In this document: positions 1 to 58,590 of the stretch, in pieces
Layout: each line of letters starts with the position of its first letter
Numbering within the stretch: position 1 is the first letter of the stretch
Assembly: GCF_018977255.1 (NCBI RefSeq)
Contig: NW_024704742.1
Coordinates: forward strand, 129,582,001-129,646,000
Reading direction: 5' to 3'
DNA length: 64,000 bases
Source: Callorhinchus milii
Lineage: Eukaryota
Notes under the pieces: generated by a model
The model's input: only the letters and a program-made list of their open reading frames with translations
What the model was told of the DNA's origin: nothing
Database searches by the model: none
Translations under genes and position numbers: made by a program

Positions 1-2845
1 ACAACTTGCACTTTTATAGCGCCCTCTACTCAGGGTAGCGTCTCAAAACCCTTATGAATGGCGGAGCCTGACTCCAAGCCGAGGGGAGAGATGGCCATAA
101 GCACGGTCGAACAGGAAAGTTTTCAGGCGGGCCTTGAAAAAGGGGAGAAAGGGGCCAAGGCGGGCGGAGAGATTGAGGGAGAGTGTTCCAGAGTTTCAGG
201 GCGCCGTGGCTGAAAGCACCACCTCTGACATTATTGTACTAATAATCCTTGCATTTGACATAGTGCCTTATCACATCGTTGAGTCATCTCAAAGCGCTTC
301 ACAGAATATACTGTAAAGTGGATTGATTATATATTTTGTGGGCGAAACACGGCAGTCAATTGTGGTCAGCAGTACCCCAAAAACAGTCATGGATTGAGTG
401 ACTGAATTATTATTATTTGGGATGGATTATTCCCCCTGGAAAGCGATCTGCCAATCGACTAAAATAACCTATCCAACGCCTTGGGACGTCCTCCCGACGT
501 AAAAGGCGCTATACAAGTGTAATCTTCTTGTTGTTGTTGAAGGTCAACACTGATTTATTCAGTTTAATAAATCAAGACCTGTTTTGCATTTTGAGACTAA
601 TGTTGTGGCTCCTCTTAAAATAAGTACAAGCTTATTATGCACCTCAATGGCTCCTATAATTTAGGTGATAATTATAATTCCTGCATTGATAATATCCTTA
701 TCATGGTATCAAAACATCTCCAAGCCTTTACATAGTTTACTATAAAGTGAGTTTTGTAAGCGAACGCATCAGCAATCTTCCGAATCTGAGACAAGCATAC
801 CAGCCAGGCTGACACCTTGCTCATCATAAACCCCACTCCCAAGATCACCTCTGCCTGCTCTGAATACGATCCTATGAAGAGGAGAAACTCGTACCCAGAT
901 TTAGAACTTCTATTGCTGATTGGAATGAGCACTCTAAAGAAGTTTCAGCTGTTCACATGTGTGAATAGTGTGCAGTGGTGTAAACCAGCAGCCCATTTCA
1001 CAATGACTGTGCTTACGTAGCTACATTCAGGACATAAGACCACTCTGGTCAGTCTGATCTGTGTATTTGGTAAATCACAGTATTTCCCATCAGTAACTAC
1101 CTTAAGATGTCCATGCACTAAGCAACACATTCAGTGAAATGGCTAACTCTGCCTTGCAATGGGGGAAAAGCTGAATTGAATTTGTGCTCCACTCAGGTTC
1201 CTTGACGGTCTGTGTTGTGCTTCCAATGAAGGAGGTCCTTTTTTTTGTGGTCAGCCAGGAATCTTGACATGTGCAAAAATTCATCATCGTGCTTAAGCAT
1301 TGTAAACCAGTCAAAAGTTGGATATACATATGCCACTTGCACATGGAAATTTCTGTTTCTGCAAAGGAGTGCACACACACTCTGGAGCAGTTGTCTCCAA
1401 CCAGTTCATCGACAATGCAGGGCACCTTCACGAATGATCAAAACTGCAAGAGGAAGGAGTGACAGAACTGCGTTGTCATTGAGTCCAATTGAAGCTAGAT
1501 GCACAAAGTATGTCATGCATCTCAAAATAAAAATATAAACTAATGTTTAAACTGCAATAAATATTGCTCCTTCCCTCTTGTTTTTATTGAGGATGTGTGA
1601 GATGCCACCTAACGCGATTGACCAGTTGAAGACAAGAACAACAAATTACATTTGTTATAGCGCCTTTCATTGCTGCTCTAGAGGGACACAGCCATAGGCC
1701 AGGATGCCAGGAGCCAATACCTGGGTACCCCAAACTATATAAACTAGTGGTACTGCTGGAGTTTAACCAGCTAAACTTGCACAGCTGAACAATATGATAT
1801 TCATACACAATTGACATGGCAAAGTACTGGATCGTGGGAATTCTGATGTGTCTTATTCAAAACTTCAACCCAGCTTTCTCTTGTTGGACACTGTCTTGAT
1901 CGGCTGATGTCTTTTCCCAGAAAAATATAGAAAACAGTTTGTAGCAATCAGTTGTCTGATACATAATGAAGGGGAGGGGGCGAAGAAAGGCACCTCCAAA
2001 TATTTTTCATACATCGCATTTTTATAACAAATGCAACATTCCAAGGCAAATGCAAGGAATTATTATTATTCCTGTTTTTAAGAGCCTTCAAGACCTTCCT
2101 TCAAGACCCATCTCAAGACCCTCCTCTTCGACTGTGCTTTCGGTCACCCTCCTTCCACCATTGCCCTCCACCCTCCCCAATCACAACCTCCAGTTCGGGT
2201 CCAAAACACTGATTGTCCAGCACCTTGGGACGTTCCTCTTGATATGAAAGGCACTATACAAGTGTAATTTTGTTGTTGTTTTAATTTCAAACTTAGTTTA
2301 ACAATTCAGAACACATCCCTGGACACCCCAGAAACAAGCAAAGCATAAACAAGGCTAAAAGGATTTTAATTTTTAAAAAAAACAATATTTGTCGCACAGG
2401 GCAACCAACTCTGATATAAAATGGAATTGGGTGTGGAAGGTATCTCCAGGTATTTCCTACACTTCACATTTCTATAACAAATGCAATTTTCCAAAGCAAT
2501 AAATTGAACAAAAATGCTAAAAACATTATTCTGGCTCAAACTCAATAGTCAGACGAAAGGCCACTGACATACCTGGAAGTAAAGCCCGAATGTCCAGCAA
2601 AAAGCAACTCAGTGCTGACTGAAGCAATGTTAGGTAGAATGGGACAAATTGTCCTGCAAAGTGTCCAGCTCATATACAAATACAAAATTACATTTGTATT
2701 GTGCGCTTCACATTGGGAGGATGTCCCAAGCACTGGACAGTCAGGGATTTGAATCTGAGGAGGGGTTTGGGATCGGAGAAGGTGGGTGGCAGGGATGGGA
2801 GGGGTGGAAGGTGACCAAAGGCACGATCGGAGGGAATCAATCTCT

Positions 2846-5022
2846 TTAAAAACCCATTCTGGCTCTTTTCTTTTTTGGTTGAGAGAGCACAGACTGGCTC
2901 AGAGACAGCACGGATTGGCTTAGAGATGGCAAAGACTGGCTCTGAGAGAACAGGGACTGGTTCTGAGAGGCCAAGGCCTGATTCTGAGAGGGCAAAGGCT
3001 GGCTGGGGGAGAGCAGTGACTGGCTCAGCGAGGACGAGGGCTGGCTCGGAGAGAGCAGTGACTGGCTCAGCGAGGGCAAAGTCTGGCTGTGAGAGGCTAG
3101 TGGGTGTTTCTGAGAGGGCAGGGGCTGGCTGCGAGAGGGCAGGGGCTGGCTGCGAGAGGGCAGGGGCTGGCTGCGAGAGGGCAGGGGCTGGCTGCGAGAG
3201 GGCAGGGGCTGGCTGCGAGAGGGCAGGGGCTGGCTGCGAGAGGGCAGGGGCTGGCTGCGAGAGGGCAGGGGCTGGCTGCGAGAGGGCAGGGGCTGGCTGC
3301 CAGAGGGCAGGGGCTGGCTGCCAGAGGGCTGGCTGCCAGAGGGCTGGCTGCCAGAGGGCTGGCTGCCAGAGGGCTGGCTGCCAGAGGGCTGGCTGCCAGA
3401 GGGCAGGCTGCCAGAGGGCTGGCTGCCAGAGGGCAGGCTGCCAGAGGGCAGGGGCTGGCTGCCAGAGGGCAGGGGCTGGCGGCCAGAGGGCAGGGGCTGG
3501 CGGCGAGAGGGCAGGGGCTGGCGGCGAGAGGGCAGGGGCTGGCGGCGAGAGGGCAGGGGCTGGCGGCGAGAGGGCAGGGGCTGGCGGCGAGAGGGCAGGG
3601 GCTGGCGGCCAGAGGGCAGGGGCTGGCTGCCAGAGGGCAGGGGCTGGCTGCCAGAGGGCAGGGGCTGGCTGCCAGAGGACAGGGGCTGGCTGCCAGAGGA
3701 CAGGGGCTGGCTGCCAGAGGGCAGGGGCTGGCTGCCAGAGGGCAGGGGCTGGCTGCCAGAGGGCAGGGGCTGGCTGCCAGAGGGCAGGGGCTGGCTGCCA
3801 GAGGGCAGGGGCCCGAATGCTTCACAATTGGTATTTACGTGTGGAGTAGACATCAATGGGATTTGGGAAGAGGTTGCTATTGGTAAAAAGTAGCTCATTT
3901 CATCGTCCTGCTCGGGTTGAGGTGGATTGTCTTCCAAGGCATCCATGTATTTCTGTAGAATTCCTTTCCGTTCCCTGGGCATGGATCTCAACTGAATTTC
4001 TAGGGAGGGCCCTGGGTCCAATACGGATTTCTGGCTTCCTTCTGCTTCGGGCGCACTGGTCTGCACCTCCTCTTCTTGCTCAAGGACAATACTTCCGTTT
4101 GCTCGGCTCACTGTAGTGGACCTATTGAGAAGGGTGTGACTTTCTGTGTCGGACAGATAATCGCTCTCCTTGAGATTCTCTGTCGAGGTTCTGCTCCAGA
4201 TTGAGGCGTCAGTGAAGTCGGAAAACTCAGACACCGATGAGGTGAAGCTGCCTGACAGCCCCCTTCTGTGTCTCGCTCGAGCTGATTTTTCATTCTTTCT
4301 TTTCGCCTGTAGCACTTTAATTCTCTTATCGTGGTTCATGCCAAGCTTCTCTGACCACCATTCGCTCCACTTCTCCTCCCAAGCTGCTGTGAGCCTGTCG
4401 CTCAGATCATCTTTCCAAACTGAGGGATCAACAGGGTCTGGAACGCTAACCGGGTCCAATATTGGGAACGTGCTGTGGGAAAGGATCTCTCTCTTCTCCA
4501 TAACACTTTTAATTCTATCCCTCACCTCCTTGTATGCGTCGCCCGATTCATCGCTGTTTTTGCAGGAAAACTTATGCTTGACGTTTATGAAACAGTGTTT
4601 GGGCAGCACTTTAGAGTTTGTATTAAGTTCTTTCTGCTTGTTTACAAATGACTTCAGCCACCTGCGACATGTGACAAGAGCAGCACGACTGAGTGGTGGT
4701 TTTCTGGTACTCTGGCTGCTCAGTGTTGGAGTTCCTTCTTTGTCTGCTCTGAGTGGCGGGGAGGCTCCCTCTGATCTTTTGCCCTCCCCTCCTCCAACCT
4801 CTTCTGGATCTCCGTGCCCAGAAGGATCCTCTGAGAGTACCCCATTGTTCAGAGTAGGACTAATAGGTTCACTGTCATTTCCGACCCTCTCCTTCGTTGG
4901 ATTTCCGTCATCGCAACCATTCTTCCGAGGAACGAGAGTTTGGTAAAAGAGATCTCCCGCTGCAGACAGCTGAATCACAGAAAGTGAATTTCTCCCGCGA
5001 CGATGATAAAATGCTGCAATAC
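2846..5022 (-). CDS. TAF1C: TAF1C terminal coding exon 14, including the SQ-rich heptad repeat
   Basis: Acceptor cctgcag|; open frame from [11 protein letters not shown] to [12 protein letters not shown]; 2177 nt. Confidence 0.92.
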
Positions 5023-8000
5023 CTGCAGGGCAATAACAAAAAATTCACTGTAAAACACGTGTATCACAATTGTACATTTAAATTGCATTTCTTCAAAAAC
5101 AAAAGTTGGTCTGAGAAATAATTTTTTAAAAAAAGGGTACATCCCATGAAACACTTTGAGATGTGCTCCTGAAGTGAAAGGCACTATATCAAATGCACGG
5201 AAAAAAGAGCAAACTACAGTCGTACACCAAACAATGGGGGAAATGGGGAAGGAAAATTGCCAAGGTAGCAAATTAATCTGCCGTGGGTTTGACCAGGTAA
5301 GACGTATTCAACTGCTTATAACACTCTCGGCATGAGGGGAGGGAGTGTATTGGAGACACCAAACAACCACTTCCACAGGCTCCCAGAGCTTTGGGGAATT
5401 CCCTGGACAGCAGGGGAACCTTGCTGATCTACCACCACAGCACCATCTAGGGCTGGTGAAGCACCTCTTCACAAGGAACAAATGCCCAAATGGACGCAGC
5501 ATTCGACGGCAGCAAAACAACAACAACAAAATTACATTTGTATAGCACCTTTCACATCGAGAGGATTTCCCAAGGCGCTGGACAATCAGTGTTTCGGACC
5601 CAAGCTGGGGGTTGGGATTGGGTAGGGTGGAGGACGGGGGCGGGGGAAGGAGAGTGATTGAAGGCACAGTCGATGAAGAGGGTCTTGAGATGGGTCTTGA
5701 AGGAGGCAAGGGAGGGGGTGAGGTGGAGGGACTGCGGAATGGAATTCCAGAGGGTGGGGGCAGAGTAGCTGAAAGCCCACCCGCCAATGGTGGGTCAGGC
5801 CAGGTGGGGGCCGTGAAGCAGGCCAAAGCCCATTGAGCAGAGGGAGCGGGCAGGATGGTAGGGGGTTAGGAGGTCACAGAGGTAGGGGGGAGCAAAGCCA
5901 TGGAGGGCTTTGATGATGAGGACCAGGATCTTGAACTGTATCCTCTGTGTAATGGGAAGCCAGTGATGATAGGGTCACGAACGTTGCGGAGGTGGGGGAA
6001 GGCAGAGCGGGTCATGGCATGGATATGGGGTAGAAATGATAGTTGAGGGTCAAACAAGACGCCAACGCCAGAACACTGTAAACGAACTAGGCTCGTTCAC
6101 ACCTTGCTGCGAGCAAAGCTTCAGGAAATACTTCCCGGATGATAACGTATTAGGAAAACTTGATGGCTTTTGTTCATTCAGTTTTAGAGAATAATAGATA
6201 AGACAATTAAAAAAACCTGTCATACCTGGCATCACACTGCTCATGGAAGCATTGTTCATGCTTTTTGAATTATATGAATCACTTCCAACATCCAAGTACT
6301 GGTGATTTAGCTGAAGACTGACAGCGCATTTGCTAGTGGTCAAACACAACTCACCTGCCCCCGGAGAGTGAAGTCTCTCAGTAATGACTGCTTCTTGCCT
6401 CAGAAATAACTTGACCGGAAGCTGCTTCAACATATCGTAATTGCTGGAGAGTTTCTGTGGTGGACCAAAGGACTGGCAGGGAAGCCGTGTACCTCCTGTC
6501 AGAAAAATAATTTGGTATCTGGCTTTACCATGCAACTGAGAAAGCCCTGATTACTAGGATGCTCCTAGCTGAATGAGCAGCTGCCTGTAAGGAAGCTTAC
6601 TCGTGCTCTGCACTGAGTTAGCTGATTAATCCCCGGTAGTTTACAACCCTTTCCCAATGCGCACACTCGGGTTCCCAAGCCTTGGCTCTTCACAACCTAT
6701 ACCTAAATTCTCTGGGATTAGGTAAACAGGATGCATTCCACTGGAGAGAGTGCACACTCTGTTCTGGAGGACATCCAAAGGCACATAACAATACCAGCTT
6801 GGCACCCAAGCTGGGGATGGGTAAAAGGAAGATGACTAAAAGCAGTCAAAGAGTTAGGTGTTAAGATTAATTATTTAAAGATTATTCATTTATTATTGAT
6901 ATGTCGATCACATAATTGATCAGGACTGGTCCCTCTGTTACAATACATTCTATTCTCTTCTCCGTTCCCATATTTACCTTGTGGGTCACTATCACCTTAT
7001 TCACATTACAGAACAGTTTACCAGTAATCATTATTAAGCTGGCACTCCAATGCCATGCTGGGGGTGCACTGCATTGTCAGAAGTGCCAAACTTTGAATGA
7101 GATGTTAAACCAAGCTCCCATCTGCCTGTTCAGGTAGATGTTAAAAATCCCACAGCACTATTTGAAAAGAGAAAGGAGTTTTTCCCCGGTGTGTTGGCCA
7201 ACAGTCCCCCAAATAAAATTGGTTATTCGTATCATGGCTGTTTGTGGGACACTGTTGTGTGCAATTATGCTGCCATGTTTGCCGATAAATACACAGTAAC
7301 TGTTTCACAGTAATTCCTATGAAGTGCTTTGAGACGTCCTTATAATAATCCTTGCATTTGATATAGCGCCTTATCAGGTCTTTTGAGACGTATCAAAACA
7401 CTTCACAGAATATACATTAAAGTGAAGTGGATGTATATTTTGTGAGCGAATATCTTCCAATGTGATAAGGTACTATACCAGATGTGAGAATTATTATTAT
7501 CATCACATAGTAACAAGTCACCTGAATACTGCAGAAGCAGTGCTTCCTGAGTGCGCTGCGTCCCCAGGACAATCTTGTGAGTTTCGTTCCTCGATGCCCC
7601 GCTCACAACTTGGGCGAACATTGGAGGCGACCCCATCATGTGCCTCCACTTCAGAACGGGGACAATAGGGAATCGTTCATCTATGATGTAGGCAGAATAC
7701 TACATTGGAAAAATAAAATTAATCATTTTGTGTTCTGTCAGGGAAAGACCAATCAAGTCAGTGTTGTATGATGCTATTGAAAATCTTTTCAGGATTTTAC
7801 AATCACAGTACGAGTGTATTAAAGTCTGCAGTTTTGGTTGACTTTTTTTTAGAAAACTATATACCATAATATATACCTATAATATATGTATCCATAGAAA
7901 GTAAATGCTCAGTCCAATTCAGAACTGAACTGCGATTCAATTAAAATTTACAATCAATTGATAAAATCAATGGAACACTAAATTTCATTTACAAAACACA

Positions 8001-11000
8001 GTCATTTTACTCTACAGTAAATCCTGTGAAGATTTAGAGACATCCTGATGTAAAAGGCACCATACCAAATAAAGGTCATCACTAATTTTCATGTTAAAAT
8101 ATAAGAAAATATTCTCCACAATGCGATCGATACAAGGAAGAAGAGCAATATTTATTTTAACATGTTTAAAATACATTGGCATTAAAATAAAATACTAACT
8201 GCTGCAGAAATGCAGAAATATATCTTGGCCTTGACTTTAGTTGACCAGGACTGCATCATCTGCAGTCTAAACAGTACTGGTAAACGTGCCTCACAGTATT
8301 GGGACTAGGAGCTTTAACCAAAGGATGTGTGCGTTATTCTATTGGTCTGCGCTTCACAATAACCAATAATCAATCAGGTATAAAAAGAGAGTTCAGTCAA
8401 GATCAATGAGACGCAGACTGGATGACTCCTCCACTGCCTGTTCCAATCCCAGGGATCAATACTGATCAATACCTCCCAGTATCCCATGTTCAGGTAATGG
8501 GTCTTTGTTCTTTGTATAGTCATTGACCTTGGAACTATAATCAAGGAAACAATTGTTTAACATCCAAATTGTGCGCATTATTTCATCATAGTAAAGTTTC
8601 CTTACAGCTTGACACCCCAAATGGGATAATTTTAACAACTGTTAAGAAGTTCGTACCTAAAAAGGTCTCTCTGTCAACTGCTGTCGAGAGAAGACAGTAA
8701 GAAACAACCGCAACCTAAACGCTGTCAGGCAGTGAAAGGTGGCCAAGGTAACCTGTCATAGTTTGGTTTTGGGTGTTGGGGAGTCTGAGGCCAGTTACAG
8801 GACCCGACCAGGATAGGCAGAATGGAAGAACTAATAACAAGAGTTGATTATATGTGCCAGAGTGAAAGTTTGTGATGAGTCATGGGAGCACTGTAAAGGA
8901 GTACAAAGAATTGCTTCAAGAGAAGCTAGATCAGGAAAGGAGAAAGGACTGCAATTATACAGGCACTATGGGTTATGAAGTAGACCCTGGGCAAGAAAGT
9001 CCAGTGCTTGTCAGAAAACTGAAAACAAGTGAAGTCAAGAGAGACTGTTGTGAAGTGATAAGGTTGAGGAGTGCAGGAGAGAAAAGCGAACAGCTAGAAT
9101 CTGAAGCTAAAGTGTTGAAAGTCTGTGTAGCTATGTTCGTTCAGCGAGTGCTGCTCAGAAGCAAAAGAACGATGCAAAGTACTAACTAGGATGTGTAAAC
9201 AACTAGAAAAATATAACAAAATTTTACAGAAACACGCCGAGGATTTAAAAAACAGTGTACGCATCAGTCTCAGCAAATGACAAACATAAAGCGAGGACCC
9301 ACAGTAGCGCATGATAATAATGATAATAATAACCCTTGCATTTGATATAGCACTCTTCACATCTTCTAAACTTCTCAAAGGGCTTCACAGAAGATGTTGT
9401 AAAGTGAATTGACCGTATATTTGTGGGTGAAACGCGGCAGCCAATTGTGCACAGCAGTGTCCCACAAACAGTCATGGATTGAAAATGACTAATTTATTAT
9501 TGTTTTGGAGGGATTATTATTAGGTGTGTGGAGTAAGGAAACTTGCCCAAGGTTTCGCCCTGCCTGGAACTGAACCCAGGTGTCTCGCTTGCAAGGCGAG
9601 TGCTCTAACCAGAGCTACAGGACTCCACAAATGATAAATGATACATTATAAGTGTAAGCACGTGATAAACAGGCTGCGAACAGTTAGGTATATAATAATC
9701 CTTGCATTTGATATAGCGCCTGATCACGTCTTCAAGACGTCTCAAAGCGCTTCACAGAATATACTGTAAAATGAATTGACTGTATATTTTGTGGCCGAAA
9801 TGCGGTAACCAATTGCACGCAGCAGTGTCCCACAAGCAGTTGTGGATTGAGTGACCAAATTATCATTATTATTTGATTTTAAGCCATTATTACTCCCGGA
9901 AAAGAGGACCACCAATCGACTAATAACTAGGTTCCTACTAGGTAAACAGGTGTGTGGAGTAAGGAAACTTGCCTAAGGTTTTGCCCTGCCGGGAATAGAA
10001 CCAAGGTCTATCACTTGCGAGAAGAGTGCTTTAACTACTAAGCTACAGGACTCCAGGATATGTCTAAGAAAGCCATACGAGGAAATACGAGACAGAGAAA
10101 CATGGGGAAAGAAGATTGGGAATCTGCCAGTAGCCAGGGTTGATACACGCAGCATTACAAGAAGTCAAAGATTACGAGAGGTTAAGGAGTCTAACGATGT
10201 TAGTACATCTAGTGATGATCTGTCAGGTGAAGAGGAAATCTCCACTCGATGCTACACCACAAAGAGTTAAAAGAGATAATAGAAAGACTAAAATTGAAAC
10301 GAGGAGATGATGCTTTAATGCATTTGGAAGTGCTTGAGCAGATGGCCAGATTACACCAATGTGAGGGGCGTATAACATCCAAATTCCGCGCATTATATCA
10401 TCATTAAGGAAAGTCATTTCCTTACTGTGTTCTACGTAAGAACATAAGAAAAACTAGACGAAAAAAGACCAAGGTTCATCTAGTTCCTGGCAGTCTCAAG
10501 TACAAAAGTCCCAAACTACTTATGTACTACATCCCATAATGTTATTTCCTAAAAGGAAACTATCTAATCTTTGTTTGAAAGAATCAACACTTCCTGCTTC
10601 AATCATCTCCCTAGGGAGCCTATTACACAGGTTCAATATTCGCTCAATGAAATAGATTTGTTCTGAATTTACCCCCTTCAATCGCAGGCTGTGTCCTCTG
10701 GTTCTACTATTCTGGATAAGTTGAAACAGCCTGTTTTGATCTATATTGTCTAGCCCTTTAGATTCTTAAAGACAGCAATCATGCTGCCTCTCAATCTTCT
10801 TTTGTCCAGCGTGAACATGCTCAATTTACTTAGTCACTCCTCAAAGTCCAGTCCTTCCATTCCCTCAATCATTTTGGTTGCCTTCCTCTGCATCGTCTTG
10901 ATTTCTCCAATAACCTTTTTGTACTATGGCGACCAGAACTGTACACAGTACTCTTAAGTATGGTCTCAACAAATGATTTCTACACCAAAGTTCTCATTGG

Positions 11001-14000
11001 ATGTATTGGATTAGTTGGTACACAATGAAATAAACCTGGGGGTGAAAGAGGAGTTTTAACCAAACAATGTGGAAAGCAGAGTTTTGTTACTTCTTAAAGG
11101 TCAAGCTATTAAACAGTTAATAATTGATGCATTTGATGCCTCACTTTGTAGGTGGAGTTATAGCCACAGACCTGGGTGGTGATGAGGTAATGAAATGGAT
11201 GCACATCCTGTAGGTGTTTAGGAAGTATCACTCGTTCCCCTCGCTGGCAGGACGCAGTAGCTCCCATCTTAAACAGCGTCTGGTTACAGGACTCGCCAGC
11301 CTGCAAAGATATTCAACAAGTTTGAAATCAACGAAATAACAACTCACGTTCTTCTGACATGAAAGGTGCTACGTAAATATAAATATATATTCCATAGGAA
11401 CCTGAAGCCCTTGCCTTCCTCTTTAACCTTGCCTACGGTCACCTTTGCTCTCTCTCCCTGGCTTGTTGTCAAATTCTGCTGTTGTTCAGTTCTCCAACAT
11501 TATGGGTGCTCTTTAAATGCAAGTAATGGTTATTGTATCTCTCTATCAATCCCTCTGCCTTGCCCGCTCCTTCCTCTTCAACCTTGCCTTCGGTCACTTC
11601 CTCCCCCTCCCTGGAGTTCGACCCTGAGCTGTCCTTTCTCCCTCACATCCGCACCACAACTGGCACCGCCTTCCATCACCTCCGGAATATCGCCAGACTA
11701 CGGCACTACCTCACCCCTCACGCTGCTGAAACCCTGGTTCACGCCTTTGTCACCTCAAGGCTGGACTATGGGAACTCCCTCCTCGCCGGCCTTCCCGGCA
11801 CCTCCCTCCACAAGCTGCAGGTCATTCAGAACTCTGCAGCTCGTGTACTGTCCCGCACCAGGCTTCGCGACCACATCACTCCCACCCTCGCTCGCCTCCA
11901 CTGGCTCCCCATCCCCCAGAGGATTGATTTCAAGATCCTCATCCTCACCTACAAGGCCATTCACGGCCTCGCTCCCCCCTACCTCTCCGACCTACTATCC
12001 CCCTACTTACCTGCCCGTACCCTCCGTTCCTCCGGCTCCGGTCTGCTCCACGTCCCCTGCCCCAACCGCCCTACCATCGGTGGTCGGGCCTTCAGCCTCT
12101 CAGCCCCGAGGCTCTGGAACTCTATCCCCCAGTGCCTTCGCCGCCTCCTCCCTTTCCTCCTTCAAGGCCGGTCTCAAGACCTTTCTCTTTGACCGAGCCT
12201 TCAGCTCCCCTCTCGACTCTCTTCCCCCTCCTCGCTCCCTCCCTTCCCTCCCCTCACCCTGACCATTTCCCCCTCCCTCCCTTCCCTCCCCTCACCCTGA
12301 CCATTTCCCCCCTCCTCGCTCCCTCCTTTCCCTCCCCTCACCCTGACCATTTCCCCCCTGCTCGGGTCATGACCCAACTGTGCAGCGCCTTGGGACGTCC
12401 TCCTGATGTGAAAGGCGCTTTATAAATGGAATCTTGTTGTTGTTGTTGTTGTTGTCAGGCTCTGCATTTGTGTAACTCAGTTGTGCATCAGCTAGCACTT
12501 TACAGAGCACTCCATATGTAGAATAAAATAAATTGCACTTGTATAGCACTTTTTTGTGACGAGAGGTGACAACAACAACAATAACGTGCATTTACATAGC
12601 TCATTTCAGGGGCAGCATCTCAGAGCGTTTAGATCTAATGAGATATAACATATAATGAGTTTCTCTTAAATTTTCCCTTATCTCCTACAGGCACAAACCT
12701 TTTGTGCTACAGTTCCATAGGCACCCTCAGATTGATTTTGTCCTAACCCAGCACCTTCCAGTAGAGGTCCCTCCGACTGATCAGAACTGGTTACATTTTT
12801 CTTTCCCAACAAAATATATGTTAATGTCCTCTACTGGAGATCCTGCGAAATGCTTTAAGACATCTCAAACAGTTGGTATGTTTGTGCTGCATGCAACTAA
12901 TTGTCTGCGGAAGGTTAATCCCGTTAGAATGCTGCATAATGCGAGGTTGATGAGCGAATGCGGTATGTAATCCAGGAACATCTAAAAGTGCCCGCTTTAA
13001 TCCTCACCCTCACGTCAGTCAGATCAAGGCCGGTTCTGTCAGCGTATAAATACACCCGTGGGTGAGCTGTGAAATCACACCATCTCCAAGGCAGTTGGGC
13101 ATTGAAGTTGAGATTCTCGGTTTCCTTTCGAATCCTCTGAAGCCTGAAATAACATAAAGTAACTTGGCAAGATAAAGAGAGGACGGAAACAAAGCAGCGC
13201 ATCAATTGGCAGTCCTTCCAAACATAAAGACCCACACAGCAATGCACTGGTCAGAAACAAAGCCCACAATCTCTGGAACTCTCTGCCTCATTCCCTCCGT
13301 CCAACTCCCACTTTTCCTTTCTTTAAAATCCACCTTAAGACTTGCTTCTTTGACTGCACCTATGTTCACCTCCCCCTTCTGATGGTCTGCTGCTGTGTTG
13401 TAGGATTATATATCTACTCTATGTTATCCCCTGAAAGGGGAAGATTCATAATAATACTTGCATTTGGTATCAAGCCTTATCACACCATCGAGATGTCTCT
13501 CAGTACTTCAAACGGATTTTATTGTGAAGTGTAGTGACTGTATTTATAGATAAACATGGTAGTCAACTCACCACACGGATACAACAACTCACCACACGAC
13601 ACCTCTAAAAAGGTCATAGCGGAATAGGGATTAAGAGTCTATTGCAGAGGCAAATTTACCTATTCGACAGATGGTGGAATTTTGCTTTGTAATTGTGTTT
13701 CTTGTGTGTTCCAATGAGGAACATTATAAAATATTTATCTACTGACCCAGTTTAGGCTCAGCAGCTTTGTTTTGGTTCAGGTCTTAAGCAAAAGTAGACG
13801 GGGGTGCCAATGTCGAGTCATAGAGCCAATGGACAAAGTGCATTTGGTGTGGGATAGCGTTCTGTCCCGTTAACTCCCCTCGAAGAACGATGGCACTCAG
13901 CAAACACTGAGCTGCTTCGTGTCTTCCATCCAATCTGCCCTACCATCGGTGGGTGAGCTTTCAAGGCATTCGGTACCCGTTCTCTGGAACTCCACCTTGG

Positions 14001-17000
14001 AGTCCTCTTCCTTGCCCCCACCTTCCTTGTTTTAAGATCCATAATTTCGAATGCACTTTTGGCTACCTTTCCTCTCCCCCAACAAGCTCTCACCAAGATC
14101 AGCATTCCAGTCAGCTGTGTAAGATATGCTCCTGTCATGAAAGGTGTCACATAAATGTTAACTGTTGTATTATTCACAGAATAAATGGGGAAAGAAAAAA
14201 AATCAATCTAATGTAACTGACAGTCTCTCAACTGCCAATTTGTTGTTTATTATTACTGTATCATTAACCTTATTGTTTTGAAGTAATCTGATAGGTTGAT
14301 TAACTGGGTAGCATGAATATGTTATTGGTAAAATAAACCATGTTTAGTGAAAAGATTTGTTCAGTCACTAGACAAGCAAAGAATGGGAGAGAGCTTCAGT
14401 GTGTATTCAACGGAAAGGTTTGGTTTACTTATAGAAGCCGGGTGAAGCAAACATAACATTTAGTTTTAATCCACGCACTCAAAAGTATTTCAGTGTATTC
14501 CAATATTTGACTCACCCTTTGTCTACATTCCAGAGGTAAGCAGTTCCACACTCGCTGGCAATCACCAACTCTCCTGGAAGGTGAGGACTGAAGCAGAGGG
14601 CAGTGTTAGAATTCCTACGAGTGCTAGATTCCCTTACTCTGCCTTACGTACAAATCGCTATTTATTTTCATCACCGGGACAGATAAAAGCAGAGAATAAG
14701 AAGTTAGCTCCAATGGGACAGCAAGCTCCAGACTTGAGTGAAGATTCGATAACAACAATTTATATTTGTGTAATGTCTTTCACGCTGAGAGGACCTCCCA
14801 AGGCACTCAACAATACTGGCTTGGCACCCGAGCTGCAAATGGGAGCCCCAGGTGGATGGGGAGGGGAAAGATGACCAAAAGTGCAATTGGTCATAAAGAT
14901 AGGTCTTGAGATGGCCTTTTTTCTCAGGATAAGGTATTCCCAGGATCAGTCCTGGCTGGGATTCCTCCCCTCCTTCTCTCCCTCCGCTATAGCACTTCTC
15001 CCCCTTCCCCACACATCTCACAAACAAATAAAACACAGAAGGCAGGCACCTGATGCCCTCGGAACCATTTCTCAGTAGAAGTAAAACGGAATAAAAATTA
15101 CTTAAAGGGAGAAAAATTTGTTTTAACATTTACAAATTTTGGGCGGGGGTGGATTCTTCCCACTCAGTTCCTGTTAACCCGGCAGGCCAGAGCCTCGACC
15201 AATAAGATGATCCTAGCTGGACAAACAGCAGTGCTCTAAAAATGACAAGCCATGTTAAACTCCATCAGTACAACACACACTCTGGGGCGTCCAAACCTTA
15301 GCTCTTGCCAATCTGTGCCTAATGTCTCTGGAATTAGGTAAGCAGCATTAGAGAGTGAGGGAGTCTATTCCAGACTCTAGAAAACGTCTATTGTAGATGA
15401 CATACAAATATGAAACTGCTTCTGGTTGAGATACTCTTATGCATGGTAATGGGTTTCCGCAGTTGTCCGACACCTGGCTTGTGAAAAAATAATTCAATAA
15501 AAAAGCACCTAGTTCTTACCTAACATTCACACAGGTAGCTACATTCTCCACTTGAACTACCTGGAGAGGAGAAGGTTTCATGCTCTTGGACAGTTTCCAT
15601 GCTCCACAACAATAGTCCGACCGAACACCTACAAACACTGCAGTCGGGAAAGTAAAATGGGAGAAATAGCCATATGAGTTTTTAGCCACTCAAAGCAGCT
15701 TGTGGAGAATGAAGTCAACACAAAGGTTAAAATTCAGAGCACATTTTAATGATGTGCAAAAATGTCTTTTTTTATTATGGAAAGGTTTATTGCACTATTT
15801 CATAGAAGAGCTAATTGCTTGCCCCAGTGTCCAGGCAATATTCCCAACCTTACTCAAATTTACCAAAACAGATAAATTCATTTATTATTTTTAATTTTAT
15901 ATTAATTTATTAACTTCGGCACTGTTGGTGAGATGCGGTCATACCTCAAGCCTTTCATGGAGACTCAATCAGATTTGGAAATAACTTAAAAATGACAGGC
16001 GTTATTAATGTATCTTTACTTTTTTTAACCATAACTTTGTTTACTGTTTAACTAATACAATTAAAACAAACGTACACATGAATATAATATATTCTGAATA
16101 TCGCTGAGAAACTACTGCTGGTTACACATTAACCCTTGCAGAACACCCACTGACTCCATGATAACAACTTGTATTTATATTGCGCCCTTAACGTGGGATA
16201 ACGCATCCAGAGAACTACACAGTGATCAGACTGGACACCGAAAAGAGAAAAGGGGAGACACAGGTGCGGTTGAAGAGATAAGTTTGTAAGCCTGCCTGGA
16301 AGACAGATGTTGGAGGGGGAGGGAGGGGGTGCTAGAGTCAAAAAAAACAATAAATTACATTTGTATAGCGCCCTTCACTTTGGAAAGACGTCCCAGGGTG
16401 CTGGACAGTTGGACAGTCAGGGGTTTTTGGACCCGAGCTGGGAGTTGGGGTCAGGTGGGGTGAAGGCCAGGGGGGTAGATGGGTGGCCGAAGGCACGGTC
16501 GAAGCCAAAGGTCTTTAGACAGAACTTGAAGGAGGCAAGAGAGAGGGTGAGGCAGAGAGATTGCGGGACAGAGTTCCAGAGTGGAGGAAATATCACAAGC
16601 TAGGAGAATATAACAAGGCTTCTTTGCCTTAGCCAGGCACGTCACCACTTTCAGGGGAAGAAAACGTAACATTCTAAACAACAAGCAATAAAACAATTTT
16701 CACCGACATGTACCTTCCTGGTCCACCTCACTGCAGGCGATTTGATTGATCCTACCATTCAAGCTGACGGAGGCTGGCTTATTAAACTTTGCATTTAACT
16801 TTGGCACTTCATCATCATCAAAATCTAATTTGATCTTGCGGAAGTCTGGTGTCAATTGGTTAAGGAGCTTCAACAAATTTTCTGCTAAACAATATGGGTA
16901 GTGCTACTTTTACTTTATTTTCCCTATTTCTACCTTTTCTTACCGTTTTTTATACCTAGGNAAAAATCTTCCTTACATTTTTGTGTATTTTACAATATAC

Positions 17001-20000
17001 ATTGTCATTTTTGGATGGATGAAGCTTGTTTTGCAATTTATATTACTTTTCCGACAAAACACACTGTGACTCCACTTTATAGGGTATCCTGAAAAACGCT
17101 TTGTGAAACTTCCTCCTGACGTGAAAGGCACTACGTCAAATGTAAGAGTTATTATTATTCTGGGGTCAAGACCACCCTCAAAAGACTGCTTCCACGACCA
17201 ATGAAAAGCTAAAAATCTGAAAAAACTTGGGCTTATTTAAATTTTTTCAGAGTATAATTTTTTTTCGCTGGTGGTGGGGGTTGGGAAGAGAGGACAGCGT
17301 ACATATAGAGAGCAAGTATTTGCAGGCTATCTTTTTTTTAAAAAAAGATTTCTGACAACAGAACAGAATATGATTTGTATATCCACTTAGAGAACAACCA
17401 AAGAAACACAAAAGAAATGCTAGATGAAAAAAGATCAAGGTCTATCTAGTTCACCTTCCTGGCGGTTGCATGCACAAATGTCCCAAACTACCTATGTACT
17501 ATATCCCATAATGTTATTTCCTAAAAGAAAGCTATCTAATCTGTCTTTGAAAGAAACGGTTTAGACAACCGCTTGGGGAAATTCAGAAAGTACGACATGC
17601 AACTGGAAATTTTCAGATAGCCACTTTTATGGATGGGGAGCATCCATCCAAAAGGATACTGAGGGAGCTCATCAAGTCGGTGCTGGGATACATCAGGCAC
17701 CCTTCTTCACAGCTGGATCCTTCAGAAAACGGCCAGTACACGAGAGCACCACCAGTGGCAGAGTGATTGAACAGAAGTTGGTTTCTTTGGAAGTTCATTT
17801 CTTCGTGAACGTTTTCTGCCAGTAAAGTTGGTGGAATATCAAACATGGACTCACCGAACAAATGACTTGAAAGTCTTGCTCGGGGAGTGTTATTAGATAT
17901 TGGGCATCTGTAAAAATCAGTGAACATACATTAACATATAACTCAGTGCAATGGAGTTTTCCATACTTCCGTTGGGCCCTGACAGAATTAATAATTTAAG
18001 CTGACACTTCAGTGCAGTTCTGTGGGTGCTCTGCATTGTTAGAGGTGCCGTACTTCTGATGAGATGGTTATTGTGCCTCAGGCGAATGGTAAAGAGATCG
18101 AATGGTTATATTTAAAAAGAGTTTCTCCCGGTGTCCTGACCAACCAACAATTGCCCAGATAGAATTGATCATTCACTTCATAACTGTCTATGGGACACTG
18201 CTGTGCTCAAATTGGCTGCCGTTCCCGCCTACGAAATATACAGTTGCTACACTTTACAGTAAAATCCTGTGAAACGCTTTGAGATGTCCTCTTGACATTA
18301 AAGGTGCTATACCTATTACTATTTATTATAGTTTCTGCCAAGAGGACAGTTCGCTTAACACTACAATACTACACGTGAAATGTAGTTCTTTACGTTTTGC
18401 TACTATCACAGCGATATATCATCAGGCATTTGTGCATTCTACTTTGGAGATGATGTTTCCAGGTTCATGTCTCTCTCTCTCCGTTTCTGAATTAGCTCTG
18501 AGAGAGGAACACACAGTAATCCAATACACTGTCTGTTGCTTACAACTTGTCTGGCACATCAATGAAACATTGCTTCAATCTTGTGAGCGCTTATAGGCAT
18601 GGTGGTGGATTTAAGTTGACTTGAAACATGCTGCATGTTTGCATGTATATTAATAATAATAATCCTTGCATTTGATATAGCACCTTATGTCGTTGAGACG
18701 TCTCAAAGCTAAGCTCTTCACAGAATATATTCTAAAATGGATTGACTGTGTATTTTTTGGGCAAAATAACACCAAATGTGTTTATTTGCACCTCTGGTGT
18801 TCAAGAGGATGTAAGGCAACATAAGGTAGTTGCAAACCCACTTAATCCAAAATATTTTTTTTTAAAAATAGTAATTTACACGGACATAAATTACAGCAGT
18901 CGATTTATAGTCAATTTGGCATCACGGTATTTATTCAAAAATTGCAGTTAGACTTTCATACAATTCATGAGTATTTATGTTTTTTGTAGCAGTAACATCG
19001 GAGGAAAGAATTTTTCAAAGTGAGGAAACTTTTCTGAAGGTAGCAAAATAATACATCACCCCCCAAAAAACAAAACAAATGCATGGCTACTTACTGCCTC
19101 TGTTTCACTCTTTCTGTGAACGTTGTCAGGAAATTTACACTTATTGTCTTATCCCTGGCTCTTCCCTTCAAGAAAGAACAAGTCAACGTATTAAACTTAT
19201 TTTAAATCACATTTCCACATTTAAAGTTAGTTCTCGACATGGATGTGCAGCGTAATTAGAGAGCTGAGTTTTCAGTAACTTCACCTCGCCCTTTGGAACT
19301 CCCTTCTCTCTGATGCATGGGGGAAACGATGCATTGAGAACTTCAATACACTCAATAAAAGTCTGAATAATCATCATCTCTACCTGTAATGGTTACTCTT
19401 TTACGTTCAAGTTCTTATATCAACTTGACACAGCAATTTGCTGCTGCATTTCGCCCACAAAATACACAGTCAATCCACTTTACAATATCTTCTGTGAAGC
19501 GCTGAGACGTCTCAACGACATAAGGCGCTATACAAAATGTAAAGACTATTATTATTATTGACACATCACAACCTTTTTTTAAAAAAAACTTATCTATTTA
19601 CGTAGCGCTATATACTGTCAGTTTTGAAAAACAATCCTTGCAATGTGATACGGTATCTATAACATTGAGAATGTTTCAAAGTACTTGTAAAGTGTAGCTA
19701 CTGTGTTTTCCACCCAAAAGGGACAGCCAATTTGCGTAAGTGTCCCCAAACAGCCATGAGATGAGCATACAATTTTATCTGGAGAATTGTTGGCCGGGAC
19801 ACCGGATAAAACTCCTTTCTCTTATCGAATAGTGCCACACGGGATCTTTAACATCCACCCAAACAAGGAACCCAGTTAAGTGTCTCACCTGAAGCTTTGG
19901 CAATGCTAACAATACAGCACCCCTACTGTATTGGAGTGAGAGCCAACAAAATAATAAAATATCATAGATTTATGCCATAAATCAAAAAATATTCACTCAA

Positions 20001-23000
20001 GAAACATTTATTTTGTTGGCCACCACTGGCCTAGAGTGTGAACTCAAAACAAGTGCTTGAAGCAAAGGTGAGGGAACTACCAACTGAGCCAGGCTTACAC
20101 TTTAATGTAACACGAGGGGAAAATAAACACAATCTCACCCTGAGAATGCAGTCTCCGAAATAAAAGCTCTCTTCCAAAAGTTTACCCATTGACCTGAAGG
20201 CATCGTCACGGTGTTCAATAAAGAAGTAAGCCATCTTCAAAAAGGGGGAAGAGAAAACCAAACTTAGCATGAACAAAATAAAAATTAATCCCAGATATCT
20301 ATCTAGTTATTGTAGCACATGTACAGAACCAAACAAGGTGAATCTAAATGGTTTTCAAAGCTTTCCTATTTCATGTTTTTTCTGATTCTCTCCTCCCCAG
20401 TCACACAAATTAGAATAATCCTTGCATTTTGATATAGCGCTTTTCACGTCGGGAGGACGTCCCAAAGCGCTTCACAGAAAAGACACTGTAAAGTGAATTG
20501 ACTGTATATTTGTGGGCGAACGCGGCAGCCAATTGCTCACAGCAATGTCCCACAAACAGTTGTAGATTGAAAATGACCAATTTATTATTGTTTTTGGTTT
20601 TGGAGGGATTATTATTAGGCTCTGTGTGGAGTAAGGAAACTTGCCCAAGGTTTCGCCCTCTGCCTGGAATTGAACTCAGGTCTCTCACTTGCAAAGCGAG
20701 TGCTCTAACCACTGAGCTACAGGACTCCACGAAGGATTGCATCTGCATAAATCTAAACTAGAAAACCAATGATCACAAAACAAACTTAATAATAATAAGA
20801 ATCCTTGCATTTGATGTACATCCCACGGAATTATCATAGAATATTGCAGCACAGAAGGAGGCCATTCAGCCTGTCGTGCCTGTGCCTTCTTTGGAAGAGT
20901 TACCCAATCAGTCCAACTCCCCCGCTCTTTCCCCATATCCTTGCAAATGTTTTCTTTTCAAGTACCTATCTAACTCTCTTTTGAAAGTTGTTTCCACCAT
21001 CCTTTCAGTCAGTGGAATCCAGAGAGTAACAACAACGTGTTAAAAAAACGTCTCATCTCCCCTCTGGTTCTTTTACTAATTATCTTAAATCTACGTGACC
21101 TGGTTACTGACCCACCTGCCAGTTTCTTCCGATCTACTCTATCAAAACCCCTCATAAATTTGAACATCTCTATTAAATCTCCCCTTAACCTTCTCTGCTC
21201 TAAGAACATTCCCGGCTTCTCTAGTCTTGCCACATAACGAAAGTCCCTCATCCCTGATACAATTTTGGAAAATCTCCTCTGTACCCTCTCTAAGGCCTTG
21301 ATATCATTCTGTGCAGAGAAAAAAATTATGTCAGCAAAAAATGAAAATTGTGCAAAACTACATGTTAAGAATTTAAATGGAAACACTTTTTTAACATCCA
21401 AGATTGAAATAAAGGAACACCAACCAGTCTGCATTCTGAACTCACAGGTATTGCAGGCATTCAGTGACTGCTTTGGCCATATTATGCAATATTATATAGT
21501 TTCCCGTAACAAAACGTATTATGCATAAAATTACCTGGATGCGTAATTGCCTGGGATGTAGGTATTGCAAATTGGTTGCTCCATTCCATACAAAGTACAG
21601 TTACTACCCTTTACAGTAAATCCTATGAAGTGCTTTAAGACATACTTTCAATGTGATAGGCTCTACATCAAATGCAACAAATAATAAATTATTATTATGA
21701 TACAGTGTACAGACATAAGTAAATCAAAAAAGGATGGGGTTTGATACAACAACAACAACAAGATTCCATTTATAGAGCGCCTTTCACGTCGGGAGGACGT
21801 CCCAAGGCGCTGTACAGTTGGGTCAGGATCCGAGCAGGGGGGAAATGGTGAGGGGAGGGAAGGGAGTGAGGAGGGGGTAGAGAGTCGAGAGGGGAGCTGA
21901 AGGCACGGTCAAAGACAAAGGTCTTGAGACCGTCCTTGAAGGAGGAAAGGGAGGAGGCGGCGAAGGCACTGGGGGATAGAGTTCCAGAGCCTCGGGGCTG
22001 AGAGGCTGAAGGCCCACACACCGATGGTAGGGCGGTTGGGGCGGGGGATGTGGAGCAGACCGGAGCCAGAGGAACGGAGGGTACGGGCATGTAGGTCGGG
22101 GGATAGTAGGTCGGAGAGGTAGGAGGGAGCAAGGCCGTGAATGGCCTTGTAGGTGAGGATGAGGATCTTGAATTCGATCCTCTGGGGGATGGGGAGCCAG
22201 TGGAGGCGAGCGAGGGTGGGAGTGATGTGGTCGCGAAGCCTGGTGCGGGACAGTACACGAGCTGCAGAGTTCTGAATGACCTGCAGCTTGTGGAGGGAGG
22301 TGCCGGGAAGGCCGACGAGGAGAGAGTTCCCATAGTCCAGCCTTGAGGTGACAAAGGCGTGGACCAGAGTTTCAGCAGCGTGAGGGGTGAGGTAGTGCCA
22401 TAGTCTGGCGATATTCCGGAGGTGATGGAAGGCGGTGTCAGTTGTGGTACGGATATGGGGGAGAAAGGACAACTCAGGATCGAACAGAACCCCGAGGTTC
22501 CTGATGGCTTTGAGAGGTGGAGAGTGCAGCCTTGGATGCTGATGGTGTCAGCGCCTGAGGTGCGGAGGCGCTGACGTGAGCCAATCAGGAGGGCCTCAGT
22601 TTTGCGCACGTTGAGCTGAAGAAAGTTGTCTCTCGTCCAGGACTCGATGTCGGACAGGCAGCTGTCAGGACATCGGTGGTCGTGGAGTTGAGAGTAGAGA
22701 AGGAAAGGTAGAGTTGGGTGTCATCCGCATACATGTGAAAGTTAACCCCATGTCTGCGGATGAAGTCACCGAGGGGGAGCATATAGAGGGTGAAGAGGAG
22801 GGGACCGAGGACAGAGCCCTAAGGGACACCGCACGAGACAGTGCGGGGGCCGGAGGAAAAACCATTCGTGGAAACAAAGTGAAGACGGTGGGAGAGGTAC
22901 GACCTAAATCACTCAAGGACAGGGCCTTGAAGGTTGAGGTGGGAGGACAAGAGGTGGAGGAGGATAGCGTGGTCGACCGTATTGATGTGGCTCATTGCAG

Positions 23001-26000
23001 TTTCTCATTATGAAACATAGCATGTCCCTACACTCAAATACCATCACAAGTTTTCTTTCAGGCTGTAATAAGTTTTAGAAAAACTAAGACATTTCAGAAA
23101 ACACACCTGCTCTGGGAAGTTCAGTGCACGCATTGCAAGCTCGTTGTTTTCCCGGCTTTTCATTACATTCCCGACATAAGAGAGGTCTTCCAGGGATGCA
23201 GGTTGAAACTTGCAGACTTAAAATTGGGAGGGATAAAAAAAAACAATCACTCACGCTTGAGAACAATATTACAGGTAACAAAAAACTGTATATGCTCACA
23301 AATACTAGGTTTTAAAACAAGAAGGGTCTTAACCAAATGAATTAGTTTTCAGAGGAAAGCATAACAAAGACAACTTTTATTTTGTCAGCCGAGTGAACGA
23401 CATCACGAGTATCCAAACTAGGCAAGAGCTTCACATATACACACAATAATAATCCTTGCATTTGATGTCACGCCTTATCATGTCTTTTGAGACGTCTCAA
23501 AGAGCTTCACAGATTATATTGTAAAGTGATTTGACTGCATATTATGTGGGCGAAACGCAGCAGCCAATTACCAACAGCAGTGTCCCACAAACAGTCGTTG
23601 ATTGAGTGATCAATTTATTATTTTTTTTAAAGAAATTATTACTCCAGGAAAAGTGATCCACCAATCAACTCAAAGCCGGGTTCCTACTTACTGCTCGGTA
23701 AACACAGGCATGTGGAGTAAGGAAACGTGCCCAACATTTCGCCCTGCTCCAGGATGGAATCCAGGTCTCTCGCTCGTGAGGCGAGTGCTCTAACCACTGA
23801 GCTACGGGACTCCACGCATACTAAGCCTGGAAACTTCCCGTCTGGAAATGGTGTGCGCACTCTCCCCGTCAGGAAGGATGCAATCTGCTTGCCTGTTTCT
23901 GGAACGTATTACGACGACTTGCATTTGCAGAGCACCTTCACACGGGCAGCAACTCAGAGCACTACCTGGATAGTAAGTCCAGGTTGGCAAAGCCAGCCAT
24001 AGCTTGGGTAACCCAGAATGTGCATTGGGGAACTGTAGGAGTTTGTGTTGTGCCGGTGCCTTGGGACGTCCTCCCGACGTGAAAGGCGCGATACAAATGT
24101 AATCTTGTTGTTGTTGTTGTTGTTGTTGTTGTGTGGACAAACGTTGCATTACCTGCGTTTGGAGGAAGTAGCGGAACAGCCACTGGCTCCAGCGGATCCC
24201 AACTCTCCCGAGCCAGGCTTCTCAGGGCTACCCATTTCCGCTCTCCTGCCTGCAAAGGACAATTATAATAATAATAATAATCCTTGCATTTGATGCAATT
24301 GGCTCCAGTGTGAACAAAACAGTCAAACCTATTGATTCAACAGGCCCCGGGCAGCGGTATATCAATGTGATTCTGCTGTTGTTGCCGAATGTAAAGCAGA
24401 GATTGTTAGTGGTTCGCAAAACAACTTGTATTTAAATAACGTAACTCACTCCGCTTCACCCTGCACCCCCGCACCCTCGCTCACCCCGACCCCGTGCCCT
24501 CGCTCACCCCCCGACCCTGCACCCTCGCTCACCCCGACCCTGCACCCTCGCTCACCCCGCACCCTGTGCCCTCGCTCACCCCGACCCCGTGCCCTCGCTC
24601 ACCCCGACCCTGTGCCCTCGCTCACCCCGACCCTGCGCCCTCGCTCACCCCGACCCCGTGCCCTCGCTCACCCCGACCCTGTGCCCTCGCTCACCCCGAC
24701 CCTGTGCCCTCGCTCACCCCGACCCTGTGCCCTCGCTCACCCCTCACCCTGTGCCCTCGCTCACCCCGACCCCGTGCCCTCGCTCACCCCGACCCCGCGC
24801 CCTCGCTCACCCCACACCCTGTGCCCTCGCTCACCCCGACCCCGTGCCCTCGCTCACCCCACACCCTGTGCCCTCGCTCACCCCACACCCTGTGCCCTCG
24901 CTCACCCCGACCCCGTGCCCTCGCTCACCCCACACCCTGTGCCCTCGCTCACCCCTCACCCTGTGCCCTCGCTCACCCCTCACCCTGTGCCCTCGCTCAC
25001 CCCGACCCTGTGCCCTCGCTCACCCCAGACCCCGTGCCCTCGCTCACCCCACACCACGTGCCCTCGCTCACCCCGCACCCTCGCTCACCCCACACCACGT
25101 GCCCTCGCTCACCCCGACCCCGCACCCTCGCTCACCCCGACCCCGCACCCTCGCTCACCCCGACCCTGCACCCTCGCTCACCCCGACCCTGTGCCCTCGC
25201 TCACCCCGACCCCGTGCCCTCGCTCACCCCGTGCCCTCGCTCACCCCACACCCTGTGCCCTCGCTCACCCCACACCCTGTGCCCTCGCTCACCCCGACCC
25301 TGTGCCCTCGCTCACCCCGACCCTGTGCCCTCGCTCACCCCGACCCTGTGCCCTCGCTCACCCCGACCCCCGCCCTCGCTCACCCTGTGCCCTCGCTCAC
25401 CCCACACCCCCGCTCACCCCGCGCCCTGTGCGCTCGCTCACCCCGACCCTGTGCCCTCGCTCACCCCGACCCTGTGCCCTCGCTCACCCCACACCCTGTG
25501 CCCTCGCTCACCCCGACCCCGTGCCCTCGCTCACCCCACACCCTGTGCCCTCGCTCACCCCTCACCCTGTGCCCTCGCTCACCCCGACCCTGTGCCCTCG
25601 CTCACCCCACACCCTGTGCCCTCGCTCACCCCGACCCCGTGCCCTCGCTCACCCCGACCCCGCGCCCTCGCTCACCCTGTGCCCTCGCTCACCCCACACC
25701 CCGCGCCCTCGCTCACCCCGACCCCGTGCCCTCGCTCACCCCGACCCCGCGCCCTCGCTCACCCTGTGCCCTCGCTCACCCCACACCCCGCGCCCTCGCT
25801 CACCCCGCGCCCTGTGCCCTCGCTCACCCCGACCCCGTGCCCTCGCTCACCCCGACCCCGTGCCCTCGCTCACCCCACACCCTGTGCCCTCGCTCACCCC
25901 GACCCTGTGCCCTCGCTCACCCCGCGCCCTGTGCCCTCGCTCACCCCGACCCCGTGCCCTCGCTCACCCCGACCCCGTGCCCTCGCTCACCCCACACCCT

Positions 26001-26774: not shown

Positions 26775-27066
26775 AACGTCATCACGCCGCCGCATACTCC
26801 CCTCGTGGTCTAACGTCATCACGTAGCCACGCCGCCGCTTACACCTGCCCTCATGGATTCGCGTCATCACGTAGCCACGCCGCCACTTACACCTGCCCTC
26901 ATGGATCCGCGTCATCACGTAGCCACGCCGCCGCTTACACCTGCCCTCATGGATCTGCGTCATCACGTAGCCACGCCGCCCTTACACCTGCCCTCATGGA
27001 TCTGCGTCATCACGTAGCCACGCCGCCCTTACACCTGCCCCTTGTGGACCAACGTCACCACGTAAC
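26775..27066. promoter_or_regulatory. TAF1C promoter / 5' region tandem repeat: five ~48-bp units plus two degenerate units, each with CGTCA (CRE half-site)
   Basis: GCGTCATCACGTAGCCACGCCGCC...CTTACACCTGCCCTCATGGAT repeated, 40-330 bp upstream of the ATG in a CpG-rich region. Confidence 0.75.

Positions 27067-30511: not shown

Positions 30512-58590
<28,079 letters not shown>

Follow-up and report, generated by a model that had tools for sequence, protein, structure and literature searches.

The window, the 64,000-nucleotide stretch of Callorhinchus milii DNA that was analysed (NW_024704742.1, positions 129,582,001 to 129,646,000), carries on its minus strand the gene TAF1C, the product of which is required for the initiation of rRNA synthesis. 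The whole protein matches the Pfam families PF20641 (E 7e-65) and PF20642 (E 8e-31), the beta-propeller and the helical bundle, and a match to PF20642 with an E value of 9.7e-28 falls within the last exon. The closest relatives carry the name TAF1C, and the basic MGF end is also present in the C. milii protein. Fourteen coding segments span 26963 to 2849 on the minus strand, and the minus-strand frame from 5044 to 2846 is open for 732 codons. The translation of the last exon is identical (100% over 726 residues, repeat tail included) to XP_042187844.1, the RefSeq protein of Callorhinchus milii. The array sequence is therefore already annotated in RefSeq, where no comment on the repeat was found. 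The features of the gene and of its last exon are as follows.

2846..26735, minus strand: TAF1C gene, from the orthologue-aligned Met (residue 77 of XP_042187844.1) to the stop codon, 14 coding segments (alignment, Pfam)
5023..6354, minus strand: last intron, skipped in the contigs of sequencing runs X5 and X7 and present in those of runs X1 and X2
2846..5022, minus strand: last coding exon with the helical-bundle domain, a Ser-rich linker and the repeat tail (open frame; GT-AG joint in X5 and X7)
4235..5026, minus strand: match to the TAF1C helical bundle domain, PF20642 (Pfam E 9.7e-28)
3434..3811, minus strand: young block A, 18 heptads of 21 nt (8 PLPSGSQ, 2 PLSSGSQ, 2 PLPSGRQ, 5 PLPSRRQ, 1 PLPSGSL)
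3314..3433, minus strand: 8 pentads of 15 nt (7 PSGSQ, 1 PSGSL), equal to the heptad form with a 6-nt deletion
3125..3313, minus strand: young block B, 9 heptads (1 PLPSGSQ, 8 PLPSRSQ)
2894..3124, minus strand: 11 older degenerate heptads, consensus SLPSQSQ, diverged at both synonymous and non-synonymous sites
2879..2893, minus strand: single-copy SVLSQ with the terminal SQ, the Ser of which lies 12 residues from the end
2846..2878, minus strand: conserved basic end [10 protein letters not shown] and stop codon

Gene models of this locus differ at both ends. The older RefSeq model XP_007895379.1 (P0001) switches frame at the array, a UniRef model of the same gene (P0021) terminates just before it, and both lose the conserved MGF end. 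At the 5' end of the gene there is a 48-nt repeat (26814-27040; 4.8 copies, 97% matches), inside which XP_042187844.1 begins, thereby gaining 16-residue repeats. As the orthologues begin at the Met at 26735, the first 76 residues of this model may be a mis-start. Intron 1 contains a 2-kb minisatellite of mixed 23- and 24-nt units (24474-26483; 75% GC, 181 CpG), and three long plus-strand open reading frames at the same place are by-products of this repeat. Upstream of TAF1C and on the same strand, the exons of a GBA2-type glycosyl-hydrolase 116 gene (PF04685, PF12215) occupy 36829-48743, and a GA-rich compound repeat at 58059-58387 is situated near the probable 5' end of that gene.

Parsing of the frame from 3811 downwards on the minus strand gives 18 heptads, 8 pentads, 9 heptads and 11 full degenerate heptads, followed by [19 protein letters not shown] at 2893-2846, the last residues of the tail being [15 protein letters not shown]. 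The initial annotation had read the first three blocks in the same way. Its count of about 12 degenerate heptads includes the last partial unit, so that 11 full units stand. Its statement that the frame is never broken also holds, each of the 35 young units being 21 or 15 nt long and the frame running open through all of them. Only 8 DNA sequences, one per peptide unit, make up the young part. Tandem Repeats Finder reports a period of 21 with 39.7 copies and a score of 952, far above chance, and a separate period-21 row at 2881-3095. Nine of the young units lack the SQ ending (7 end in RQ, 2 in SL), which the initial annotation had not noted. The last 321 residues of the protein contain 39 SQ (29 of them SQP), no TQ, no Tyr, two SP and no TP, and 26 Lys or Arg residues together with no Asp or Glu; SQPL occurs 21 times in the tail, and the one TP of the region is upstream of the array, with none within it. 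The young array is 76% GC, and G4Hunter gives its template strand a mean score of 1.14. Two further GC-rich arrays lie within the TAF1C gene. With tandem in-frame units in the 10-60 nt range and near-identical DNA, the array has the sequence properties of a coding VNTR.

The repeat tail is predicted to be disordered, as the initial annotation had proposed. AlphaFold2, run on the last exon with a 30-row alignment, places helices up to residue 362 of 724 and no secondary structure beyond, with pLDDT mostly below 50; since the alignment is without rows for the array itself, this lends the disorder of the tail weak support. A sequence search of the PDB returned no match for the TAF1C protein, and thus no solved relative by sequence, and the ESM Atlas gave no usable match for the repeat tail.

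The array is real and is transcribed at least at its 5' edge. Four of the 24 listed sequencing runs (X1, X2, X5 and X7) were examined over 3770-6600, a region that contains only the first two repeat units. No run is recorded as RNA, and X5 and X7 were judged to be spliced RNA because the last intron is skipped at its GT-AG ends and is uncovered. X1 and X2 are unspliced; single-copy SNPs set them apart both from the window and from one another. These two DNA runs enter the array with SNPs of their own, so that other DNA samples also contain the beginning of the array. The contigs of X5, X1 and X2 all stop at 3783, 29 nt into the array, which is the predicted branch point of the 31-mer graph of this array allele. 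On its way to 3783, the X5 contig, the main RNA path of this run, is continuous through a candidate GT donor at 3838, with no joint or loose end there among the best-supported rows. The X7 contig ends at 3883, 72 nt before the array, and this gap proves nothing. No contig spans the array, so that the contigs document its 5' edge and neither its total length nor its full inclusion in mRNA. The first-bin depth, expressed as copy-bases over flank, is 783 in X1, 1078 in X2, 11 in X5 and 0 in X7, compared with 942-3599 in simulations of this allele, and represents neither a copy number nor an expression level, for which reason it was not used as evidence. The DNA depths fit a multi-copy array, and the low RNA depths may be due to drop-out at 76% GC or may be real. 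Word shares of 0.73 in X5 and 0.67 in X7, versus 0.55 and 0.51 for the examined part, give a weak hint of the 3' side in both runs. Single-copy differences among X5, X1, X2 and the window were seen at 3935, 4541, 5301, 5325, 5449 and 6094; a G inserted behind 5449 in both DNA runs may reflect either an allele or an error of the assembly.

The origin of the array can be traced by comparison with sharks and rays. In the elasmobranchs (13 representatives, one of them shifted by a residue), the corresponding region reads CE, three residues, one 7-mer, five residues and PKKK. In 11 of the 13, SQ closes the 7-mer, as in LTPSRSQ of Pristiophorus. In C. milii, 306 residues consisting of 38 heptads and 8 pentads replace this 7-mer. 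The orthologue alignment that had been proposed as a check of the initial annotation therefore sets one heptad-length block against 46 units, and the idea of an expansion from an older motif is borne out. Since a single 7-residue block is all that sharks and rays have at this position, the unit carrying the second-last SQ has been amplified 46-fold in the array. In C. milii the terminal SQP remains single-copy, and a terminal SQ is found at the matching place in 10 of the 13 elasmobranch representatives. Measured from the conserved Y-L-x-A-L motif, the tail is 65-69 residues long in 15 elasmobranch records (the 13 cluster representatives and two members, one short Hypanus isoform being left out), 71 in the coelacanth, 61 and 52 in two teleosts, and 367 in C. 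milii. The long array is absent from all 15 elasmobranch records. No other holocephalan was found among the 18 matches of 402-1281 residues, at 1282-3660 residues or below 402 residues, and none was recognised among the 88 representatives from the exhaustive search, the names of 20 of which were checked. The available sequences support the view that the array is lineage-restricted among them, in agreement with the initial annotation.

The motif that was multiplied belongs to a cluster that is much older than the array. The exhaustive search, clustered at 50% identity, yielded 88 representatives, of which 56 ending in MGF or IGF were kept and 32 partial or mis-ended ones were left out. The last 50 residues of these 56 vertebrate orthologues contain 224 S/TQ (215 SQ) as compared with 78.6 +/- 6.9 (maximum 106) in 2000 shuffles, a comparison that carries no strict P value because the orthologues are related, but in which each protein represents a 50%-identity cluster. 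The reverse pairs QS and QT occur 84 times in the same residues. At least three S/TQ are present there in 48 of the 56 orthologues, and the last S/TQ is located at most 16 residues from the end in 50 of the 56. The excess persists without the terminal site (148 versus 63 in 55 proteins) and declines upstream. An anchor-based scan of tail length worked in 28 of the 56 proteins and was not used. The S/TQ cluster is conserved in the orthologues beyond what composition accounts for, and its density agrees with the definition of an S/T-Q cluster domain (SCD) as at least three S/TQ within 50-100 residues (PMC3564818, PMC4705472). Whole shark and ray proteins contain 7-13 SQ, and the last 320 residues of the Polymixia lowei and Knipowitschia caucasica proteins contain 27 and 26 S/TQ, respectively.

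Human data provide a link between this tail and the DNA damage kinases. Table 1 (section 10) of the review PMC4737151 lists S848 and S858 of human TAF1C as putative ATM/ATR sites, taken from Matsuoka et al., and the same review states that TAF1C co-purifies with NBS1. This is a stronger connection than the one available to the initial annotation. The Cdk1 site T852 of the human protein is situated in the peptide SQQHpTPVLSSQPLR printed in PMC4449194. Counting from T852 in this peptide, S848 belongs to the first SQ, and the second SQ is one residue off S858 as printed. The S1C Fig of that paper aligns vertebrate tails and may be relevant to the homology of these sites. A 2026 paper still terms TAF1C a potential target and describes a phospho-SQ-dependent condensation of Treacle in the nucleolus (PMC13183679). 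The main text of the SCD paper PMC4705472 does not mention TAF1C, and the available text of PMC13342686 and PMC8393943 contains nothing on its tail. The literature covered, with subscription journals largely outside the search, contained no paper joining 'Callorhinchus milii' and 'TAF1C' and none on a TAF1C repeat tail. The TAF1C tail is an old SQ cluster that is likely phosphorylated by ATM, ATR or DNA-PK.

Repeats are found in the tails of other fishes as well. Unrelated tandem repeats occur in the last 250 residues of 5 of the 55 other orthologues: a 16-mer of about 7 copies immediately preceding the terminal SQ of Polymixia lowei, an SQ-rich repeat with a period of about 11 just before the terminal SQ in Knipowitschia caucasica, a 13-mer in Salvelinus, a 16-mer without SQ in Coilia grayii and a 16-mer with one SQ in record P0125. 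Independent repeats of the C-terminal third, tandem or degenerate, were noted in P0068, P0121, P0077, P0069, P0125 and P0109, which include the Polymixia, Knipowitschia, Salvelinus and Coilia proteins. The sequences thus present the TAF1C tail as a repeat-prone region, in which the repeats of other fishes fail to separate tolerance from selection.

The substitution patterns differ between the two layers of the array. In the young heptads, pS is 0 and pN is 0.077. The young units contain four kinds of substitution (G-R, S-R, P-S and Q-L), two of which destroy SQ, and it is in this part that the selection for a phospho-rheostat suggested by the initial annotation finds no support, synonymous divergence being absent. 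The lack of any synonymous change among five does not reach significance (P 0.16), and these numbers therefore stop short of proving the young array neutral. The older units have an omega of about 0.46 and an invariant S4. In older units 2-11, one of 22 amino-acid changes falls at S6 or Q7 (P 0.001), and with the boundary unit PLPSQKH included the count becomes 6 of 24 (P 0.23), in a small test on units that share ancestry and with a register chosen when SQ was known. These patterns point weakly to constraint on the older units. Since the conserved end lies downstream, frame keeping would be expected for any repeat at this place; in the 23/24-nt array of intron 1, the unit length is divisible by three in 35 of 84 units.

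By combining these observations, it is possible to propose how the tail arose and what it may do. With a probability of roughly 0.6, a GC-rich 21-nt coding minisatellite copied an ancestral SQ heptad about 46 times in frame, enlarging a vertebrate-wide SQ cluster that is likely phosphorylated by ATM, ATR or DNA-PK, with the newest copies probably being tolerated outcomes of repeat instability and not a device favoured by selection. One 7-residue block in sharks and rays corresponds to 306 residues here, and these residues fall into two layers, an old one of 11 diverged heptads and a young one of 35 near-identical units. Slippage or unequal exchange would set the copy number, and alleles that break the frame would be removed by selection, as the conserved basic MGF end is downstream. 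Judging from the human data, PIKK kinases would phosphorylate some of the tail SQ sites after DNA damage. As the tail has 26 Lys or Arg residues and no acidic ones, its positive charge would be neutralised by the added phosphates. Such a loss of charge could weaken the contacts of SL1 at the rDNA promoter, along the lines of the model put forward for T852 nearby in the human protein (PMC4449194). Phosphorylation upon damage would then be the ancestral task of the tail, to which the extra copies may add sites and length but no new function.

Two observations argue against mere tolerance. Older units 2-11 point to selection for SQ in the extra copies, depending on the boundary unit, and elasmobranch tails are tightly held at 65-69 residues, so that tail length in this sister group is not free to vary. 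The amplification could itself have been selected, with more SQ sites making a graded or more sensitive ATM/ATR switch on SL1 or a multivalent nucleolar phospho-scaffold. The constrained S4, S6 and Q7 of older units 2-11, the SQ-rich repeats before the terminal SQ of Polymixia lowei and Knipowitschia caucasica, the 21 copies of SQPL, a context that also appears in the printed human C-terminal peptide (PMC4449194), and the precedent of Treacle (PMC13183679) are all consistent with this possibility. It is nevertheless unlikely: any duplication within an SQ-rich tail yields SQ repeats, SQ has been removed from 9 of the 35 young units, the GSQP and RSQP contexts lack the +2 Glu that is enriched at known sites (PMC3564818), and the signal in the old units, which share ancestry, hinges on the omission of one of them. 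A broader proposal, that a vertebrate-wide ATM/ATR phospho-cluster has its site number tuned by repeated independent expansion (39 SQ here, 27 and 26 elsewhere), making SL1 a charge-flipping multivalent damage sensor with a species-specific gain, is equally doubtful.

Still less probable is that the array is genomic and its assembled length is wrong, or that most mRNA omits the array or ends within it, so that the long tail is rarely made. XP_007895379.1 leaves the frame at the array and P0021 stops there, the array is spanned by no contig, and every unit ends in a pyrimidine-rich stretch followed by CAG, with a GT at 3838. However, the X5 contig passes 3838 without a break and reaches 3783, the join in XP_007895379.1 lacks a GT donor and gives this older model a defective look, the array is followed in frame by the conserved MGF end, and X1 and X2, with SNPs of their own, also enter the array. 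The initial annotation had also likened the tail to the Pol II CTD, and in its full form this would be a Pol I counterpart, a CDK-written heptad code that recruits processing factors. The period of seven and the Ser/Pro-rich, predicted disordered C-terminal tail on a transcription protein invite the comparison, but it fails on sequence, and such a code is very improbable: the last 321 residues contain no Tyr and no Ser-Pro repeat (two SP, no TP), there is no Pfam match to PF05001 at E values up to 1, pentads interrupt the period, the array is missing from 15 of 15 elasmobranch records, and the tail periods of other fishes are 11, 13 and 16.

In the silencing of Pol I by ATM, TAF1C has so far been considered no more than a putative target (PMC4737151, PMC13183679). 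The tail with the human sites arguably matters here, because the SQ cluster is kept across jawed vertebrates. Species would form a natural allelic series, in which most have about 4 SQ within their last 50 residues and the C. milii tail has as many as 39. Should the array be no more than tolerated, it amounts to an ordinary coding minisatellite, unusual in its size, which RefSeq already contains and which older gene models mishandled.

Compared with known S/T-Q cluster domains, the TAF1C tail is alike in having far more than three S/TQ in 50 residues, in its conservation across orthologues and in its predicted disorder, and is unlike them in consisting of near-perfect tandem units with 39 SQ in 321 residues and in being basic rather than acidic. 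The C-terminus of human TAF1C (TAFI110) is the orthologous tail, with SQ just before the basic MGF end, whereas the C. milii tail is about 300 residues longer and its amplified unit carries the second-last SQ. Site-for-site homology of the human S848, S858 and T852 with C. milii residues rests on the printed peptide and on the length of the human protein, which we take to be 869 residues. The consensus heptad of the RPB1 CTD (PF05001) is YSPTSPS (Y1-S2-P3-T4-S5-P6-S7). The TAF1C tail shares with it the period of seven, the Ser/Pro-rich composition and the predicted disorder, but has no Tyr and no repeated Ser-Pro, is not part of a polymerase subunit, is not conserved between related species and has no synonymous divergence in its main array. 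Coding VNTRs and minisatellites occur in disordered protein regions. With these the array has in common a GC-rich unit divisible by three, blocks of variant units, a homogeneous young part and a degenerate edge, and it differs from them by its place in an essential Pol I factor and by multiplying a kinase motif. The array is most likely an oversized coding minisatellite within a known kind of phospho-cluster.
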